The notes beneath the pieces were generated by a model. The model ran no database searches. It was not told the origin of the DNA and saw only the letters and a list, made by a program, of their open reading frames with translations. This document shows positions 18,230 to 30,419 of a stretch of 64,000 nt of DNA, piece by piece. The translations under genes were made by a program, and so were the position numbers. Location of the stretch: the IMG/VR virus record IMGVR_UViG_3300029913_000001; one strand, written 5' to 3'. Source of the DNA: a virus. Taxonomy: Duplodnaviria > Caudoviricetes. The number at the start of each line of letters is the position of its first letter. Position 1 is the first letter of the stretch.

Positions 18230-18269
18230 AAACGAAAACGGTGAGCAGAGATGCTCACCGTTTTCGTTT
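18230..18269. terminator. Bidirectional terminator between convergent genes
   Basis: 18-bp perfect stem AAACGAAAACGGTGAGCA / TGCTCACCGTTTTCGTTT with a GAGA loop. Confidence 0.85.
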
Positions 18270-19095
18270 AATACATTAATTTTGCTAAAAATCGAGCTTG
18301 CGTACACGGCTGCTTAATAAACATAATTGCGCTCTTTCTTCCTTGTACTGCCAGCATTTGAACTTCTTCATCTGGATTTTTAATGAATTGAATAGCGGTT
18401 GGCGCTTTTCGTACCGCGGCTAATTGAACATCCTTACTCGCGTTAGGAAATAGTGCTATTGTTCCACCAAACTTTGTAACCATCTCCAATTGAATCTCTT
18501 CTGCCGGATTATCAATATAATGTATAGCATTCTTATTTTTTGCAATAGCCGCTCGTTGTACCTCAACACACGGATTCTTAATATATCTAATATTTTTCCC
18601 ATTTTTATTCACAGCAGCAAATTGCACAGGTAGCGATGGCGTAAAAAATTTCATTCTCTTTGGATCTTTTATAGCGCAATACTCTTGTACCGATTCTGGA
18701 ATATCTTTAAGAAATTTCAATGCGGCCATACTCTTTTTCACAGCAATTAATTGAAGAATTTCGCTAGGATTTTCGAACAATTGGAGTAATTCATAGTTTC
18801 GTTTTACTGCCAACCCGATAAGTTTATCACTGGGAGAATCAATAAATTTAATCGCATATCCTGTTTGTGATATCGCAGCGATTTTCATTTCTTCTGTTGG
18901 ATTTTCTACATAACGAATAGCAAGACCCGTTTGCGTTAGCGCGGCCAATGTTACTCGAGGAGAAGGATTCGATATGAATTCTAGAAGAAGACCATTTTTC
19001 TGAACGGCTAAAAGTTGCGCCGCTTCGGACGGAGATTTATCGATAAGAATTGAATATGGATTTTTTGGTACTCGTTTCTTTTTTGAATATGCCAT
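18268..19095 (-). CDS. Tandem ~23-aa repeat protein (DUF4116-like)
   Basis: Repeats of the type A[VI]xxnGxAIx[FY]IxNPxxE[VI]QxA. Confidence 0.8.
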   Translation of the reverse strand: MAYSKKKRVPKNPYSILIDKSPSEAAQLLAVQKNGLLLEFISNPSPRVTLAALTQTGLAIRYVENPTEEMKIAAISQTGYAIKFIDSPSDKLIGLAVKRNYELLQLFENPSEILQLIAVKKSMAALKFLKDIPESVQEYCAIKDPKRMKFFTPSLPVQFAAVNKNGKNIRYIKNPCVEVQRAAIAKNKNAIHYIDNPAEEIQLEMVTKFGGTIALFPNASKDVQLAAVRKAPTAIQFIKNPDEEVQMLAVQGRKSAIMFIKQPCTQARFLAKLMY

Positions 19096-19151: not shown

Positions 19152-20741
19152 TTAAGAACACTTACTTGATCCGCAACTCGCGCAATGATAGCATCCGGAT
19201 TCATATATTAACTGGCCGCCGCATTGGGTACATTTTTCGCCATCAACTTTTTCTCCATCTCGAATATATCCAGCAAGTAATTTTTTAACATGAAAAAGAA
19301 AACTAGCAAAAGTTACACCTTCAACTTTATCGAGCTCTGCAACAACATTCTTAATTCGAACGCCATGCCGTAATAATAGTCCGATAGTTCTAGCAATTTT
19401 TACACTGTTTGAATCATTGCCGCACTTTCGTACTGTTGATTCTATATATTGTGCGGGAATACCTTTTACTCGAGCTAAATTAATTAATCGATCGACCACA
19501 TCGTTCGTAGTCACCGATTTTTCTATGGCATTAGTTTGCACAAAAATTGAAATTGGTGCCTTATTGGCATTCAACCCGATTGTACAATACCATTTTCTTG
19601 ATCCGCCGGATTCATGATCTCTAAGAACTTTCATTTCGGCCGTGGTCGTATCCGGCAATTTAACATCATCTAGAATAATTTCTTCATCAGAACTTTCATC
19701 TTTTTGATCTACAGCCGAAAGAACTGAACTCATCGTTCCTGCGCGATATGTCGTAATTCCTTTTATATATCCTGTTTCAAAAGCATCAAGATAAATATTT
19801 TGAAATTTTTCAAACATATAATCACTGGGTAAATTGACAGTTTTACTACAGGCAGAGTCCGCGCACTTGCACCAACCCTTAAGGTCAGTAATATGCTCTT
19901 CAACAGATAATTGGGTGGTGGTAGCCGCCCAATCCGCAGTTGGGTCCCACTCGCCGATCTTTGAGAGATATCGAACCCCATAATCCTGGCATAACACTTC
20001 CTTTGTTAATCCTCGATTTTTATCAATTTTATAAACGGTACCATATTTATCTACGCCTCGTAAAATTTGCTCGTCGCCTTCTTGTGCAAATTTAAACATT
20101 TCCGTTTCAAAAAATTCACCTTGACTCCAAACCGGAGTAACTAATCGGATATGATCTGGCATATGTGAAACAATAACCGTTCGAGTATATTCTGGTAGGA
20201 AAGCGGGCTCAATCCCACCCGTAACAACCTGTGCTAAACAACCACTATTTCCATTCGGTTGATTCGAAAAAAGCGCCGAATTTCGTATACCATTCTTTTT
20301 CATACGATTTCGCAAGTTAACTGGTAAATCAATATTATCCCAGAAAGGACTTAATACATGATTATCTGGTTCGCATAATGGGAACATTCCCTTTTCATCG
20401 GCGAGATTTAATGAGGCTTCAACTCCGGCGTGAGTGAAAACTGTTAATAATTCATGCTGAATTTTAAGCGCCTCTTTTGATCCATATCGAATCTTCATCA
20501 TAATAAGAGAACTACCCCAGCCCATTACGCCGCATCCTATCCGCCGTTTATTTCTCATAGTACTTACATATTCGGGTAATGGTGCATCACTATACTCATT
20601 TACATTATCTAGAAAACGAACAAGGTAGCCTACATATTTTTTAACTCTATCTAAATCAAACCCAATTCTATCTTTATTTACAAATTGGGTAAGATTCATT
20701 GTGCCTAAACAGCAAACACCCCCGGGTGCTAACATTTGCTC
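19152..20741 (-). CDS. nrdJ: Class II (B12-dependent) ribonucleotide reductase, exon 2
   Basis: Begins EQMLAPGGVCCLG; contains RRIGCGVMG, GIEP, SKTVNLP, GITTYRAG and a C-terminal zinc ribbon CTQCG...GCYHCASCG. Confidence 0.88.
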   Translation of the reverse strand, partial: EQMLAPGGVCCLGTMNLTQFVNKDRIGFDLDRVKKYVGYLVRFLDNVNEYSDAPLPEYVSTMRNKRRIGCGVMGWGSSLIMMKIRYGSKEALKIQHELLTVFTHAGVEASLNLADEKGMFPLCEPDNHVLSPFWDNIDLPVNLRNRMKKNGIRNSALFSNQPNGNSGCLAQVVTGGIEPAFLPEYTRTVIVSHMPDHIRLVTPVWSQGEFFETEMFKFAQEGDEQILRGVDKYGTVYKIDKNRGLTKEVLCQDYGVRYLSKIGEWDPTADWAATTTQLSVEEHITDLKGWCKCADSACSKTVNLPSDYMFEKFQNIYLDAFETGYIKGITTYRAGTMSSVLSAVDQKDESSDEEIILDDVKLPDTTTAEMKVLRDHESGGSRKWYCTIGLNANKAPISIFVQTNAIEKSVTTNDVVDRLINLARVKGIPAQYIESTVRKCGNDSNSVKIARTIGLLLRHGVRIKNVVAELDKVEGVTFASFLFHVKKLLAGYIRDGEKVDGEKCTQCGGQLIYESGCYHCASCGSSKCS

Positions 20742-20985
20742 CATCGGTTATTTCAACGCGCTTTATCGTTGATCTCCTCATTTCTAAGGAGTGTCGGACT
20801 ATATCTTCATACTATGTATGTCGGGCGCTCGTGGTAGGATTATTGATTTAGTTTCTCACCTACTAGTCTCTACGCTTTTCAGAATACTGTTATACTATTT
20901 CTTCTGACTTAGCTCGGTATTTCCAGTTTAAAGGATTCACCGAATTCACCCAATGATTATACTGAGGCCAGCTTTACGCAATTTG
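20742..20985 (-). ncRNA. Group I self-splicing intron (244 nt, no ORF) in nrdJ
   Basis: The 5' exon ends in U (GGT) and the intron ends in G. P1 pairs GGU/CA with UGGCC through a U.G wobble at the splice site. Core elements GGGUGAAUUCGGUGAA (P), AAUACCGAGC (Q), GCGUAGAGACUA (R) and GAAGAUAUAGUCC (S) are present, with P7 GACUA/UAGUC. Removal restores TNPCG|EQML in frame. Confidence 0.93.
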
Positions 20986-22005
20986 ACCACAGGGATTCGT
21001 TGTCGCAATTTTCTCTAAATAATTAAGTTGATTAAATTTATTTGAACGATCTAAAAATAAAATTCCTGGTTCGTTTCTATTATAGGTTGATTGAGTAATC
21101 AAATTCCATAACCATTCAACTTTAACCGTTTGATAAATTTTAATTGGATATCCTTTTGATACCCACGATGTTAGATCCCCAAACCATTCCTTTTTATATT
21201 GCGGATGAGTAGTTTCTGGATAAACCAAATCCCAAGTAATTGCATTAATTTCATTTTGGGGTGCCCCATCACGTTTTAATTGAGATAAATTTAATACTTT
21301 TTCCATAAATTTATCGGTGCAATTGACACTCATATTAAATTTGGATAATCTGCCGGGAGTTTGTTTTGCTGTAATAAATTCAATAATGTCCGGATTCCAA
21401 ACAGACATACACAACATCTGGGCGCCTTTTCGGATTTTACCTTTTGCTTTTTTATTTAATGATTTTTTACCAGAGCCTGAAGTAATAATTTCTGAACTGC
21501 GGTCAAAGAGCTCGAAAAATTTAACAGCCCCAGGCGTTTCCACCCCTATACCATTGATAAATGTGCCGCGTGGTCGAATAAAATCTGCGACGGCTCCTGC
21601 TCCCCCTTCAGACTTAAGAGTGAATGATTGATATTTAAGATACTCTAAAATGCCTTCTAAACTATCGGCATCATATTTAGGATTCGGGAGAACAAAGCAA
21701 TTAATTAAGGTTGTTCCCTTAAATTCTGTTCCGGCATTTGCCAAAATTCTACCACCGGGAACTACTTTGAATCCTGTAAGCATATCATAAAAATTGTATG
21801 CCCATTTAACTCGTAATTCTTCTGTTGCCTCCACGCTTGCAATTGCTTTTGCAACACGCCAAAAATTATCATTAATATCGGCGTCTTTATAATCTTTATA
21901 AGTAGCAGACCAGACCTCTTCACTAAAGCTATCTTCAAATTTCGTTGTTTGTTCTGGTCTGGGGAGATAAGAAAGTCCTTTCATTGTTTCTTGTGTTGTG
22001 TTCAA
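20986..22005 (-). CDS. nrdJ: Class II ribonucleotide reductase, exon 1
   Basis: VPGGRILANAG, TLINCF, EGGAG, RKGAQM, KFNMSV, NEPGILFLDR and ATTNPCG. The start may be the TTG at 22005 or an ATG seven codons later. Confidence 0.88.
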
Positions 22006-22044: not shown

Positions 22045-22608
22045 TTACCGCGGATAAACTACATATTGATAACATTTTTTTTCTTTTCCATAAAAACTTA
22101 CCATTTCTTCTACCGACACTATTTCATTCATATCGGGCGAAACCGACATCTTATATCCAGCATTTAGCAATGTTTGCCATGCCGTATTATCTTCGGATAT
22201 CATGCTTTTACTACTTTTAATTGCGCAGTTATCATTGTCTAAGATAGCGACATATAAATCGGCTAATTCCCCATATGTTATAAAAGAACTAATTCTGGCA
22301 TTTATCACTTCTAGTTCAGTACCGACTTTTTCCAATTCGACTATCTGCGTCATCGTTTCATTTTGCTCTGTCCAATAATAAACGCAGGTAGATAATTCTA
22401 TTTTTCTAGTGGTATCATTAATAATAATTGGTTGTTGCCCGAATTTTAATAAATCTCGAATATTATATTGTAAGATATCGAACATTCTAAATTGCCAAAA
22501 GCTTTTACCAGGCATCTCTAAAAAACTAACTTCCATTCGATGCATATCTTCGAGACAGTATAGCTTTTCATAATTGCACATATCTATTATATCTTGTTGA
22601 CCTATCAT
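22045..22608 (-). CDS. GNAT-like hypothetical protein (paralogue of 22611-23219)
   Basis: Shares KIELSTCVYYW and the overall layout with its neighbour. Confidence 0.55.
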   Translation of the reverse strand: MIGQQDIIDMCNYEKLYCLEDMHRMEVSFLEMPGKSFWQFRMFDILQYNIRDLLKFGQQPIIINDTTRKIELSTCVYYWTEQNETMTQIVELEKVGTELEVINARISSFITYGELADLYVAILDNDNCAIKSSKSMISEDNTAWQTLLNAGYKMSVSPDMNEIVSVEEMVSFYGKEKKCYQYVVYPR

Positions 22609-22610
22609 GT

Positions 22611-23219
22611 TTATACTCCAGCCAATTCTCGATATCTTTGGGTATTGAAAAAGTTTCTAGTCTCGGCTAATATTTTTGTTTCCGTTAAAATATATTGATA
22701 ACGTTTATAATCGGTATTATCGTTCTCAAAATAATTATCAAAATCGTTAATTGTTAAAAATGTTTTAAAAGTTCTTCCCGGATTTAATGCGTCATAAATT
22801 GAAATCTTATGACCCATTTTAAACAACCTTTTCCAAATAGCATATCCTTCATCGGACAGGGATACGTCGCTCAAAATTCTTACACCTTTACCGCAATCTT
22901 TTAGAATAACATCGTATAAAGAGCTAGCATATGGCTTTCTTCCCCGCCAATTAGAATTTTTTCCTGTAATTCTAACTACTAATCCTTGAGGTTTCTTTTC
23001 TAATTCCGAGCCTAAAATAATTTCATTATCTATTTCATACCAGTAATAGACACAAGTAGATAATTCTATTTTTCGATAACCATTGCCCATATCAATAGAA
23101 ATCTGGCCGTTTCTTTTAAGATCAGCAATATTATATATAAACATATCATATAGTTCGGTTTTACCGATTCCTTCCGGGGATTCGGTTAACCATGTTTCGT
23201 TGAATTCTAACTGGCTCAT
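22611..23219 (-). CDS. GNAT-like hypothetical protein
   Basis: WRGRKPYASSLYDVIL resembles GNAT motif A, followed by SDVSLSDEGYAIWKRL. Confidence 0.55.
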   Translation of the reverse strand: MSQLEFNETWLTESPEGIGKTELYDMFIYNIADLKRNGQISIDMGNGYRKIELSTCVYYWYEIDNEIILGSELEKKPQGLVVRITGKNSNWRGRKPYASSLYDVILKDCGKGVRILSDVSLSDEGYAIWKRLFKMGHKISIYDALNPGRTFKTFLTINDFDNYFENDNTDYKRYQYILTETKILAETRNFFNTQRYRELAGV

Positions 23220-23234
23220 AATGCTCCTATATAA

Positions 23235-24233
23235 TTATATATTCCAGCTCTCATATAATAACTGCGATCCTAAATTCTTTGATTTAAGTTCGCACATAAT
23301 ATCGGCCCAATTCCAATGGCCATACGCCCAAGAATTAACCGCAGAATTAGTAAAATACTCACTGTGCCCACGTAATTGTTGTTTTTTAATACCGGAGGCT
23401 ACTAAAATTGAAAGATCAGGTAACGAAGATAAACTTGAATTAACTACGTCCGGTCGGCATTGACTATAATGAATTACGGGACGAATTCCTCGCCAACTAT
23501 CTTTAACTTTTGTAATTCGAGCATCGGATGGTAAAATATATTCTCCCGTTTTAATAAAATGATGATGCAGATCGATTACCAACGGAAGGCAATCTGCTAA
23601 TTTTAAAGTATCATCTAAGCCCCAACTAATTTCGTCATTTTCAATAGTAAGTGTGTTTCTTGCAGTAGAACTTAATTTAGGTAATATGTTTCTAATCGCT
23701 GTTGGCCCTACGCGACCGCCAACATGAATATTACATTTGAAATCCTGCCACGATTTTCCGTAACCCATCCAACGTATCATATCACTGTGGTATTCGATTT
23801 CTAGCCGACTATTCTCGACTACTTCCGTTCGATCACTAGAAAGACAGCAAAATTGTCCAGGGTGCATACTTAGCCGAACATTTAGATTACGTGCTACTTC
23901 ACCAATAATAGAAAAATTACTTTCACAATAATTCCGCACATCGGGTCGTTTCCAAAATGTTGACCAAACACCCTCCGTATACATCGGTAGAATATCAGAC
24001 GATAATCGCACCATTCTTAATTGATCCGTTAGCGATCCTACTTTTTTCACTAATTGCAATGATGCCGTTAAATTATGCTGCATTATATCCCAGAGTCGTT
24101 GCTCGGCATCTAACTTAGTTTGCCGATTTAGCCAAGATACCGTTGTTACTCGATTGTTCAGTTCGGCGACTGATTCGATCCTATTATTTGTATTTTTAAC
24201 CCATTTACATGCAAATCCAATGCGTTTAACCAT
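23235..24233 (-). CDS. uvsE: UV damage endonuclease (UvsE/UvdE)
   Basis: RIGFAC, RLSSDILP, RLSMHPGQF, IENDE, DLHHH and RGHS motifs. Confidence 0.93.
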   Translation of the reverse strand: MVKRIGFACKWVKNTNNRIESVAELNNRVTTVSWLNRQTKLDAEQRLWDIMQHNLTASLQLVKKVGSLTDQLRMVRLSSDILPMYTEGVWSTFWKRPDVRNYCESNFSIIGEVARNLNVRLSMHPGQFCCLSSDRTEVVENSRLEIEYHSDMIRWMGYGKSWQDFKCNIHVGGRVGPTAIRNILPKLSSTARNTLTIENDEISWGLDDTLKLADCLPLVIDLHHHFIKTGEYILPSDARITKVKDSWRGIRPVIHYSQCRPDVVNSSLSSLPDLSILVASGIKKQQLRGHSEYFTNSAVNSWAYGHWNWADIMCELKSKNLGSQLLYESWNI

Positions 24234-26203: not shown

Positions 26204-27166
26204 TTATTTAACCGAGTGAAATTGTTCAAACTTACGATTGTAGAAAGAACAAACATCTAAACATTGCTTCGAACAAATCGGATCAGTTTTGGTATTATGT
26301 GTCTTATACCATTCAGCCCGTTCTTCTCGCATATGAGGTCCGACTTTTCCGATCGGCCGACCACCTTCTCGAAAATAAATTACACAGGGAAAGTGATAGT
26401 TACCGTTGACAATCATATCATCATGCACAAGGCCGCATTTCGAAACATCTGAGTCTAATAATCCTCTTACGGTTGTGCCTTCTTTTAGATTTGCAATTCG
26501 ATATGCTAAAATAGGATGTCTAGACAAGATATCAGGCGATACTACGACATTGCTCAACTTATTCGATTCTTGAGCGGCAGGAATAATTCGAATATCCGCA
26601 ACCCCTAAGCTATCGGCAAACGTAATAATCTCATTCACCTTTTCAGCATTAATTCCGGCATTTAAAACAACTCCGACCGAAACATATGTCTTAGCCGACA
26701 AATATCGAATATTCTCTACGACTGTTTCCCATTTGCCAGCTCCCCCATCAAGAATGTCGCCGTCTGATGCGCAACAGGCATCGAGCGAAATGCTCAGATC
26801 ATTTGCACCGGCAGCAAGCAACGAATCATACAATTCCTTTGATGCCGAGCCATTCGTTGAAATTGCAATACGTTCACACCCTACTTCCTTTGCAATCGCA
26901 ATCAACTTATCCAATCCCTTATATAATGTGGGTTCCCCACCGGAGAATCGAATATTCTTAAGATGCTGCGCGCCCCATAGACGAACAATGTTTTCTGCAT
27001 CTACAAAAGGAATATCCGGCCCGCCTACCCGCCTACAATAGGGGCATCGAAAATTACAGGCCGAGGAAACGATAAGTTCACATCGCTGTAAATCAGAAGA
27101 TACCGATGCATTACGGCAACGATTGTTGCTAAGAGTATAAAATCCAATTTGTGTTAAGTCTTCCAT
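26204..27166 (-). CDS. Radical SAM enzyme (MoaA/NifB/PqqE-like) with extra C-terminal Cys residues
   Basis: CNFRCPYC (CxxxCxxC), FSGGEP, ISTNG and SISLD motifs. Confidence 0.9.
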   Translation of the reverse strand: MEDLTQIGFYTLSNNRCRNASVSSDLQRCELIVSSACNFRCPYCRRVGGPDIPFVDAENIVRLWGAQHLKNIRFSGGEPTLYKGLDKLIAIAKEVGCERIAISTNGSASKELYDSLLAAGANDLSISLDACCASDGDILDGGAGKWETVVENIRYLSAKTYVSVGVVLNAGINAEKVNEIITFADSLGVADIRIIPAAQESNKLSNVVVSPDILSRHPILAYRIANLKEGTTVRGLLDSDVSKCGLVHDDMIVNGNYHFPCVIYFREGGRPIGKVGPHMREERAEWYKTHNTKTDPICSKQCLDVCSFYNRKFEQFHSVK

Positions 27167-28319: not shown

Positions 28320-30368
28320 TTACTTTCCCAAAGCCTCAGTTAACCAATCATCTCCAACGATGTTGATACCCAACTTCTGTGCCTTTGCAAGTTTTGATCC
28401 CGCCGCCTCTCCGCAAATCAAAAGGTTAACATCCTTTGTTACGGAACTATGCGCAATTGCACCCAACTTTTCTAAATCAGCCGTGATACCAGGACGGGAA
28501 CCACGAGCAAACGATCCAGTAATGCAAAAGTCGACTCCCTCTAACTTCTTACCGGCTGTTGGAACTGTAACCAACCCAGTAGGACGAACGCCCGCCGCAT
28601 GAAGCCGATTGCACAAATTAACGTTATTCTTATTCTTTGCCCAATCAACAATTGAAGCGGTCTTTACAGGACCGAGTTTTTCAATATTCAGCGCAGGTAA
28701 AGTAAGTAGCAACTTGGGCAACTTACCCATATCGTCGGAGGTAAGATTCAATGCCTTTGAGATGTCTTCCCCAAGCGAATGTCCAACCATTGGAATGTTA
28801 AGTGACGCAATCCAACGTTCCCAAGTTGCGGTCTTTGCAACTTCTAAACTCTTAACCATCTTCAGAGTGTTAACACCGGAACGAAAGCCGGCATTTTTAA
28901 ATGAGGATACCAGAGCAAGATCATTTTGCTTCGACTTCGAAAAACTTGCAGCGGAATTTAATGATGCATTTCCAAATTCAAATAAATCCGCAATATTAGT
29001 AATATCGAAATCAACTAATTCAGCCGACATACTAGCGCCGAGATTATCAATTTCTAAAGTATCACGATGGCCAATGTAAACAAACTGTTGTGCCGCCTTT
29101 CCTGGGCACGCACTATTATCGCAAAATCGTTGCGCAATACCGGAATCATTTTGAATTCGCAAAATGGAATTGCAAGAGGGGCAATGTGTCGGAAACGGCA
29201 ATTTCCTTGCTCCCTTATTATTCACAACACCGGTGATATAGGGAATCACGTCGCCCGAACGCAAAATCTTGACTATTGATCCAATCATTATGTCAAGATT
29301 TTCCATGTAAGTTTCGTTACAAAGATTAGCGCGTGAAATCATCGCACCGCCGAGGTCAACCGGCTCCAAAATTGCCACCGGAGTGACCTTTCCCGTGCGG
29401 CCTAGGCCAAATTCGATGCCCGCCAACTTTGTTTGGGCAGACAAATTTTGGGGCTTAAAGCAATGCTGATAGCGGGTAAATTTTTCAGCGACCCCAAGTG
29501 TATTTCGAACTTTGTGTGAATCGGCTTTAATTACTACACCATCGCAAACAACGTCGGTAGTCTTAATAAATTCGAGCAGCTTGTTTAGTGCACCTTCAAT
29601 CGCACCTTTTGCAGAAGTTGCAACCGCAATGCCTTCATACTTAGGAAAGCCCAGAGCATATGCGAGATTCATACGCGCAATAGCGCTATCCGGGAGCAAA
29701 TCATCTTGATCTGGGCTATACATATCCCAGGGCATTAGCAGAATTTCGCGACTTGCAACAATAGACATATCTTGCTGTTTCATTGTGCCCGCAACAAGAT
29801 TTCGTGTGTTTGAATACTGCTTACCTCCCAATGCGTTAATGCGAGCTAGTTCACTCTTTCGCATCACTAGTTCACCGCGAATTCGAAGATCGCTGGGCAA
29901 ATTCTTCGGAAGATTTTTCCCACCAAAGTATTGCGGAATATACTTGCAGGCATGAACCTGCTCGGTCATATCTTCTCCGGCTTCTCCATCGCCGCGTGTT
30001 ACAGCACGGATCAGCCGGCCATTCTTGTAAGAAAGCTCGCAGCTAATCCCATCCCGTTTCGGCTCCTCGAGAACAACATCACCATAATTCTTGGCAGCGG
30101 CAATATAACTTTCGGGCGTGTAATAATTCTCAATACTCAACATTGGCCGATCGTGCTTAATCCGAGTAAGAGAATTCTTTGAATCCCCCACACGAGTGAG
30201 GACGGTCGCAAGATTCGCAAAATTCGAATTTGCATTAACCAGCGAAATCAACTGCGCTTCTAGCGCATCATATTCACCATCGCTCAAAATTGGATCGCCG
30301 GCGTAATAGGCTACCTGCGCGTCAATCAACTGCGAATTAAGTGTTTCAATCAACTTGCCTGCTTGCAT
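28320..30368 (-). CDS. ligA: NAD-dependent DNA ligase (start revised to MQAGKL)
   Basis: KRDG adenylation motif, TRGDG, RGE, DGVVIK, GRTG, CPSC zinc finger, HhH and BRCT (FCITG, AGSKLAKA). Confidence 0.95.
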   Translation of the reverse strand: MQAGKLIETLNSQLIDAQVAYYAGDPILSDGEYDALEAQLISLVNANSNFANLATVLTRVGDSKNSLTRIKHDRPMLSIENYYTPESYIAAAKNYGDVVLEEPKRDGISCELSYKNGRLIRAVTRGDGEAGEDMTEQVHACKYIPQYFGGKNLPKNLPSDLRIRGELVMRKSELARINALGGKQYSNTRNLVAGTMKQQDMSIVASREILLMPWDMYSPDQDDLLPDSAIARMNLAYALGFPKYEGIAVATSAKGAIEGALNKLLEFIKTTDVVCDGVVIKADSHKVRNTLGVAEKFTRYQHCFKPQNLSAQTKLAGIEFGLGRTGKVTPVAILEPVDLGGAMISRANLCNETYMENLDIMIGSIVKILRSGDVIPYITGVVNNKGARKLPFPTHCPSCNSILRIQNDSGIAQRFCDNSACPGKAAQQFVYIGHRDTLEIDNLGASMSAELVDFDITNIADLFEFGNASLNSAASFSKSKQNDLALVSSFKNAGFRSGVNTLKMVKSLEVAKTATWERWIASLNIPMVGHSLGEDISKALNLTSDDMGKLPKLLLTLPALNIEKLGPVKTASIVDWAKNKNNVNLCNRLHAAGVRPTGLVTVPTAGKKLEGVDFCITGSFARGSRPGITADLEKLGAIAHSSVTKDVNLLICGEAAGSKLAKAQKLGINIVGDDWLTEALGK

Positions 30369-30380
30369 ACCTGTTTTCCT

Positions 30381-30419
30381 CACTGAAATAATTATAGCAA
30401 ACGCCGGGTTAAGTGTCAA
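30381..30419 (-). promoter_or_regulatory. Early promoter cassette copy 3 (ligA)
   Basis: Perfect TTGACA-17-TATAAT plus the exact 21-mer. Confidence 0.9.

Follow-up and report, generated by a model that had tools for sequence, protein, structure and literature searches.

An ORF-less group I intron in the active-site loop of a class II ribonucleotide reductase gene of a giant T4-related peat phage

Introduction

Group I introns in phage ribonucleotide reductase (RNR) genes are textbook cases. The T4 nrdD (sunY) intron (NC_000866, 45612–45840, annotated as 'group 1A intron in nrdD') resides in a class III gene and carries a GIY-YIG ORF (I-TevII) after its core. The two introns of orf142 of Staphylococcus phage Twort (NC_007021, 17003–17229 and 17281–17538) are short and ORF-less, have an IA-type core and interrupt a structural gene; they are IA2 introns, for which self-splicing has been demonstrated and a ribozyme crystal structure exists. 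Group IA introns are also known in nrdE and nrdF from bacteria of the Bacillus cereus group (PMC2248736) and, as cited in PMC3653736, from Bacillus prophages (Lazarevic 1998). These self-splicing introns, with or without endonuclease genes, interrupt conserved parts of class Ib RNR genes and are polymorphic in presence and absence among close relatives.

Class II, B12-dependent RNR genes and the active-site loop of RNRs are likewise targeted by selfish elements. Meng, Zhang and Liu (2007, J Bacteriol 189:2150) published a group I intron that interrupts the class II RNR gene of Nostoc punctiforme PCC 73102; according to the accounts of that work in PMC2853384 and PMC12702839, it lies on a bacterial chromosome, carries an insertion sequence and is spliced to give a functional gene. 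Inteins of class I and class II RNRs most often sit immediately on the N-terminal side of the thiyl radical active site (PMC2677866), and RNR genes are a classical example of the coincidence of introns and inteins (PMC3653736, PMC2814812). RNR genes may also be split without a ribozyme, as in the T4-like phage Aeh1, in which mobE parts the active-site residues of nrdA, the catalytic Cys and Glu both remain on the first half and assembly of the halves is mediated by tails (PMC3045599). A 2013 survey of phage RNR genes listed a split nrdJ in just two phages, phiYS40 and P60, both without an intron (PMC3653736).

The locus described here lies in a 64,000-nt stretch of viral DNA (Caudoviricetes; IMG/VR record IMGVR_UViG_3300029913_000001), hereafter the window, in which a first-pass annotation had proposed a group I intron between two RNR ORFs. 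The window intron resembles that of T4 nrdD in occupying an RNR gene of a T4-related phage and in the plan of its core, which includes an additional hairpin after P7, but differs in the class of the gene, the insertion site and the lack of an ORF. It is comparable to the Twort orf142 introns in length, ORF-less state and core, but not in its host gene. The IA type, the location in a conserved part of an RNR gene and the presence/absence polymorphism are shared with the Bacillus nrdE/nrdF introns, which occupy a different gene class and other sites. The Nostoc punctiforme intron, as far as its published accounts go, is the counterpart in a B12-dependent RNR gene, differing in its chromosomal location and its insertion sequence. 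RNR inteins target the same loop, but are excised from the protein, and their insertion point lies 6 nt upstream. As in Aeh1, active-site residues of a T4-like phage RNR are parted by an element, which in the window has the form of a ribozyme. The Twort nrdE introns were considered as same-site analogues and ruled out, their NLCCE motif being intact within one exon.

The interrupted gene and the exon junction

The interrupted gene is a minus-strand nrdJ, encoding a class II (B12-dependent) RNR, which the ORF list and its translations give as two in-frame halves. Its parts and the neighbouring genes with Pfam families are as follows.

18268–19095, minus strand: DUF4116 repeat protein (Pfam), neighbour of nrdJ
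19152–20741, minus strand: nrdJ exon 2, 529 codons and stop, EQMLAPGG at its start and a CxxC...CxxC tail at its end
20742–20985, minus strand: ORF-less group I intron, 244 nt (Rfam RF00028, 59.8 bits); intron nucleotide i is position 20986 - i
20986–22005, minus strand: nrdJ exon 1, 340 codons, ending ...TTNPCG (ORF list)
23235–24233, minus strand: UvdE-type UV endonuclease (Pfam), neighbour of nrdJ
26204–27166, minus strand: radical-SAM protein (Pfam), neighbour of nrdJ
28320–30419, minus strand: NAD-dependent DNA ligase with BRCT domain (Pfam), neighbour of nrdJ

The two adjoining ORFs at 22045–22608 and 22611–23219 matched no Pfam family. Exon 1 probably starts at the TTG at 22005, which has GAGG upstream. 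Both exon lengths are multiples of three and that of the 244-nt spacer is not; the spliced product would be a protein of 869 aa. The G+C content of the intron (40%) is close to that of the window (38%).

Both exons are long open frames which together contain every conserved RNR motif. In Pfam, exon 1 matches Ribonuc_red_lgN and positions 2–213 of lgC (the first 213 positions of the barrel domain), while exon 2 continues with lgC positions 225–523. TIGR02504 (NrdJ_Z, NCBIfam) is the top family for both halves, with 171.5 bits for exon 1 and 206.4 bits for exon 2, against 84 and 92 bits, respectively, with the class I model NrdE_NrdA. The class II identity rests on this ranking of families, since the TIGR02504 scores of the halves, obtained separately, total about 378 bits and thus fall just under the curated whole-protein cut-off of 399.95. 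That the two ORFs are exons of one NrdJ, as the first-pass annotation had it, is borne out by their coverage of TIGR02504 (22–283 and 284–603, with nothing missing or doubled at the 283/284 boundary) and by the best PDB match of both halves, the B12-dependent RNR of Thermotoga maritima (1xje). The NPCG end of exon 1 corresponds to residue 323 of 1xje, and exon 2 aligns to residues 332–635, its own residue 9 lying opposite residue 332, so that residues 323 and 324 are contiguous across the join.

Joining of the exons gives ...TTNPCG^EQMLAPGG... (^ here and below marks an insertion site or join) and restores the Asn-x-Cys-x-Glu finger loop; the resulting TTNPCGEQML parallels ATNPCGEQIL and GTNPCGEQTL of uninterrupted homologues. 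At the nucleotide level, the predicted join is TGTGGT-GAGCAA (...CCC UGU GGU followed by GAG CAA AUG...), or, in a longer form, CCCUGUGGU joined to GAGCAAAUG, and the predicted ligated-exon cDNA is CCCTGTGGT joined to GAGCAAATG. In 10 homologous loci, at least 11 copies of nrdJ have no insertion at NPCG^E, two of them in L211. The gene reads through with ATNPCGEQILPIGG in the huge-phage record LR756502 (L001) and with GTNPCGEQTLPP in the IMG/VR and metagenome contigs L004, L005 and L205–L207; L203, L209, L210 and L211 read through as well, and the NPCGEQ reading is found in L001, L004, L005, L203, L205–L207 and L209. Since these homologues read straight across the join and reproduce NPCGEQ, the TGTGGT-GAGCAA junction anticipated in the first-pass annotation appears to be right. 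Shifting both splice sites by one base would leave the protein unchanged and would lose both U-1 and the terminal G; the chosen sites are the sole option that keeps U-1, the terminal G and NPCGEQ without an extra residue.

Identification and architecture of the intron

The RF00028 (group I intron) score exceeds the Rfam gathering score of 50, with E-values of 9.4e-15 in a 501-nt search and 1.2e-12 in the whole window. An Rfam gathering run on the whole window with the default fast filters returned no match, and the intron emerged only under laxer filters. This failure of the fast run explains why the introns at this site in viral contigs and in public genomes of Lentibacillus had likewise escaped recognition by that route. 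Matches to the mir-553 and sau-59 families scored far under their gathering scores and were dismissed as chance. The Rfam alignment placed P3–P9 correctly and P1 incorrectly, and the 5' end of the intron was accordingly folded by hand. The minimum-energy (MFE) fold of the intron has a z-score of -3.31, with none of 200 shuffled sequences folding as well, and recovers P1, P4, P5, P6, P6a, P7, P7.1, P8, P9 and P9.1 without constraints. The longest open frame in any of the six frames of the intron does not exceed about 31 codons. The structural elements (intron nucleotides are abbreviated nt) are listed below.

20962–20992, minus strand: P1, exon CUGUGGU and intron CA with UGGCCUCAG (nt 16–24), read from the sequence and the MFE fold
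20974–20976, minus strand: in-frame UAA, three codons into the intron, which would end translation of unspliced RNA
20821–20953, minus strand: P3, nt 33–39 with 159–165, enclosing P4–P6 and P7.1
20874–20943, minus strand: P4-P5-P6-P6a domain, nt 43–112 (Rfam alignment)
nt 43–48 with 67–72: P4
nt 51–53 with 62–64: P5, short (3 bp)
nt 73–75 with 110–112: P6
nt 79–84 with 101–106: P6a
20797–20868, minus strand: P7 pseudoknot, GACUA (nt 118–122) with UAGUC (nt 185–189) (MFE fold)
20834–20863, minus strand: P7.1 hairpin, nt 123–152 (123–127 with 148–152), between P7 and P3'
20808–20820, minus strand: P8 hairpin, nt 166–178 (166–170 with 174–178)
20753–20791, minus strand: P9 (nt 195–212) and P9.1 (nt 214–233) (MFE fold)
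nt 195–201 with 206–212: P9, GAAA loop
nt 214–219 with 228–233: P9.1, conserved loop AUAAAG
20742, minus strand: terminal G (omega G), nt 244, directly before the 3' splice site

These results agree with what had been claimed from the letters: an ORF-less group I intron at 20742–20985, P/Q/R/S-type core segments (which align to the Rfam consensus), a U.G wobble in P1, the P7 pairing GACUA/UAGUC and a terminal G; the covariance-model search proposed as a check has given its match once the filters were relaxed. P1 comprises 8 bp and one U:U mismatch, and the wobble is formed by U-1 (20986) and G18 of the guide sequence, the core of which, GCCUCA, is common to the same-site introns L152, L220 and L256. 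P2 is absent, as it is across the whole family. P10 is limited to 3 bp (exon +2 to +4 with nt 14–16) with a G-G mismatch at +1; its pair at exon +3, read by hand, is G:C in the window and A:U in Lentibacillus, a single compensatory change. P7 is presumed to contain the guanosine-binding site, and the P7.1 hairpin is the extra element of IA-type phage introns, which places the intron in subgroup IA (T4/Twort type).

Intron family and covariation

The window intron is a member of a large family of phage introns. The P7.1-P3' motif AATAATCCT..CA.GAG.GCCC was found at 59 IMG/VR loci and the J8/7-P7 core motif at more than 117 IMG/VR loci or contigs. The pattern AGAGACTANTAGGTGAG was found at 7 loci, only two of which, L008 and L011, are homologous. 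A megablast search with the 3-kb locus gave no match among phage records. The nearest DNA relatives found among phage records by blastn sit in other genes, namely the large-terminase gene of Proteus phages (76% identity over intron nt 115–236; 73.6 bits with RF00028), the DNA polymerase I gene of Felixounavirus and the capsid gene of a marine podovirus. In the Proteus phage vB_PMG_YP1 (L006:2355-3093), the family intron with this RF00028 score splits a gene annotated as 'terminase large subunit 2_1 / 2_2'; a 146-aa ORF without a Pfam family follows the intron core, a layout like that of T4 nrdD with I-TevII.

Covariation was assessed in a MAFFT alignment of 28 distinct family members with a hand-made structure. 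In this alignment, 85.5% of the cells are paired, compared with 32–46% when the partners are slid by 1–3 columns; 33 of the 53 pairs show compensatory changes, and the covariation score reaches 0.472, whereas the controls do not exceed 0.164. None of 500 shuffles reached any of the covariation measures. P3 and P7 are paired in 100% of the cells, with 2 compensatory pairs and 2 covarying pairs, respectively, and covariation is also seen in P4, P6 and P6a. P8 (93% paired) has compensatory changes in 4 of 5 pairs and P9.1 (91.5% paired) in 5 of 6; the closing pair of P7.1 covaries as well (CG in 12 members, UA in 10, AU in 5). In a larger set of 58 sequences, to which T4, Twort and Lentibacillus contribute, compensatory changes are seen in 45 of 47 pairs (6 of 7 in P3) and 84.9% of the cells are paired, in an alignment that was itself fitted to the model. 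All core helices are intact in the window intron, and the positions that are invariant in the family are retained.

The covariance model built from the 28-member alignment, R1, finds a single copy in the window, which scores 177 bits and thus falls within the range of the seed members. Among characterized phages, R1 was applied to the complete T4 and Twort records, in which the best matches were the T4 nrdD intron (58.1 bits) and the two Twort orf142 introns (61.8 and 58.1 bits); since these are the best characterized matches, the family is assigned to the IA kind. With 58 bits against 177, the relationship between the T4 nrdD and window introns is distant. A FastTree tree of 50-odd members groups the window intron loosely with L019 and L215 (the latter in a Neobacillus prophage terminase gene) rather than with the Lentibacillus same-site introns, a grouping given without support values in a set in which all identities are 56–61%. 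In three other IMG/VR loci, R1 matches are clustered within a few kb (six to seven in L042, six in L039 and three in L070), which suggests that these genes are heavily intron-ridden.

Proposed splicing and alternative explanations

On the evidence of its model match, fold and family, the 244-nt element is very probably a genuine IA-type group I intron, complete in structure and without an ORF, in nrdJ of an uncultured peat phage. We infer its catalysis, splicing in vivo and history of mobility, and the two-step transesterification is read from its anatomy. The transcript would fold and free guanosine would dock in P7 and attack the phosphate after U-1 (20986), which would be held in P1 by the guide sequence during this first step. 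The terminal G (20742) would then take the place of the guanosine, and the 5' exon would attack the 3' splice site. Joining of the exons would restore the Asn-x-Cys-x-Glu loop of a single 869-aa class II reductase. Ribosomes on unspliced RNA would be expected to halt at the UAA three codons into the intron; such an early in-frame stop fits the pattern of other bacterial RNR introns (PMC2853384).

The earlier claim that no active RNR could be made without splicing is an inference. A split class Ia RNR works in the Aeromonas phage Aeh1, and the Thermus phage phiYS40 has nrdJ-a/b, so that functional split RNRs exist (PMC3045599, PMC3653736), and the halves of the window gene might in principle be translated apart and assemble in the manner of NrdA-a and NrdA-b. 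An AUG overlapping the last three bases of the intron indeed causes the ORF caller to report a 530-aa 'gene'. However, this AUG has no Shine-Dalgarno sequence upstream, whereas the TTG start of nrdJ and those of several neighbours have one. The tails that are essential in Aeh1 (PMC3045599) are also missing, exon 1 gaining only Gln-Ile-Ala and exon 2 only Met. Moreover, the spacer has the sequence of a complete ribozyme, and its boundaries restore the loop to the residue. The chance that the two halves work as a split enzyme is thus considered very slim. As exon 2 lacks a Shine-Dalgarno sequence and neither half has Aeh1-like tails, separate translation is unlikely, and an active enzyme probably requires splicing.

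It is also conceivable that the intron has decayed and lost splicing, nrdJ being a pseudogene and deoxynucleotides being supplied by another reductase or by the host. The ORF-less state is the stage of the homing cycle that precedes loss or decay, and the 64 kb examined are part of a much larger genome that may encode a second RNR elsewhere. Contigs of four peat or permafrost metatranscriptome runs correspond to 19341–19497, 20467–20695, 21013–21163 and 21202–21502; these are exon pieces which all stop short of the junction and are silent on splicing. Nevertheless, the intact core helices and retained invariant positions, an R1 score typical of the seed members, the two long open exons with all RNR motifs and the presence of the stretch, unchanged, in many peat metagenome runs make decay very unlikely. 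Given that the window is a metagenome assembly, an artefact could be suspected as well. Yet 14 DNA runs, some of which may be the source sample, hold 74–100% of the words of the intron-containing 2.85-kb stretch, and homologous introns occupy the same site in cultured Lentibacillus genomes. Chance resemblance is excluded by the covariance-model E-value (about 1e-12), the MFE z-score and the covariation in homologous introns; the probability left to an artefact or a chance match is negligible. A group I intron whose removal would restore NrdJ is therefore the reading followed below.

Other occupants of the finger loop

The NPCG^E loop is a hot spot for insertions: six elements occupy four insertion points within 8 nt of the finger-loop codons of nrdJ. 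At exactly the window site (NPCG^EQ), the IMG/VR locus L152 has an 828-nt family-type intron with a LAGLIDADG_2 ORF (71 bits). The NrdJ of L152 is about 29% identical to that of the window; the guide of its intron is almost the same (GCCUCAC) and the J8/7-P7-P9 strand is identical over 22 nt. ORF-less introns of 257 and 259 nt are located at NPCG^E in the chromosomal nrdJ of Lentibacillus salicampi (L220) and L. salinarum (L256), respectively. These score 104–108 bits with R1, outside whose seed they lie, and have the guide core, the P9 strand and a 3' end in ...GAUG in common with the window intron. The Lentibacillus gene encodes a vitamin-B12-dependent reductase, its exons matching NF005991 positions 93–480, 481–653 and 653–858; the L. 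salicampi gene is interrupted once more, by about 470 nt (L220:2076-2549), at NF005991 position 653.

The neighbouring points are occupied by both introns and inteins. In the IMG/VR locus L353 (reverse strand), a LAGLIDADG family intron is inserted at NPC^GE (TGT^GGT), 3 nt upstream of the window site, and its endonuclease resembles that of L152. Two inteins are found at NP^C in relatives of the window nrdJ: a LAGLIDADG-type one with Ser as its first residue in an IMG/VR locus whose host protein is 59–63% identical to that of the window (L003:2918-3991), and an HNH-type one in nrdJ of the 735-kb huge-phage record LR756501 (L002:2062-2994). A sister nrdJ on a metagenome contig (ERZ795041 NODE-438; L204:2766-2998), with exons 84–88% identical in DNA to those of L003, has an insertion of about 233 nt which splits the Cys codon (CCC T^...G^GT GGT GAG). 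This insertion keeps the rule of U-1 and terminal G and contains GACUA/UAGUC; it has no Rfam match and only a weak R1 score (17.8 bits). Judged from these sequence features, it is a probable group I intron.

Mobility and competition between elements

The first-pass annotation had stated that the intron has no homing ORF and that any mobility would need an endonuclease in trans, and this statement holds: no homing endonuclease ORF was found in the six frames of the intron, no endonuclease family was found by Pfam in the ten neighbouring ORFs, and tblastn of the window with six endonuclease and intein queries gave no match. Among the marks of a homing intron, presence and absence at one site and an endonuclease-bearing version elsewhere (L152) were observed, whereas an intron-encoded endonuclease was not. 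The lack of an endonuclease gene implies that the intron either no longer moves or relies on an endonuclease provided in trans; collaborative homing, as cited in PMC2814812, provides a precedent for a trans-acting enzyme.

The intron probably descends from, or was spread by, relatives carrying LAGLIDADG ORFs at the same site of nrdJ. It may further be speculated, as a rather unlikely possibility, that the ORF-less intron is kept as a cheap immunity against inteins and endonuclease-bearing introns of the neighbouring sites during co-infection, or that a free-standing or co-infecting endonuclease spreads it by collaborative homing. The idea of immunity derives from the fact that the target sequence of the neighbouring-site endonucleases is broken up when an intron occupies G^E.

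Conclusions

Though real and cleanly delimited, the intron represents a further phage element of a well-known sort at a known hot spot. The first-pass annotation had described a group I intron in the active site of a B12-dependent NrdJ as less familiar, which is fair; the case is not new, given the Nostoc punctiforme intron, at least as it is reported in the papers cited above, and the introns at the same site in Lentibacillus and viral contigs. The known workings of group I introns are unchanged by this case.

For annotation, the finding matters in that nrdJ would, without it, be taken for a pair of gene fragments or for a pseudogene, and routine fast-filter Rfam annotation would overlook the intron. 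The known hosts of RNR introns now include a giant T4-related peat phage. The nrdJ finger loop, empty in some alleles and occupied in others by either of two intein types or by introns at three positions, offers a compact natural series, which may be used to study the competition between selfish elements and the specificity of nrdJ-targeting LAGLIDADG enzymes.
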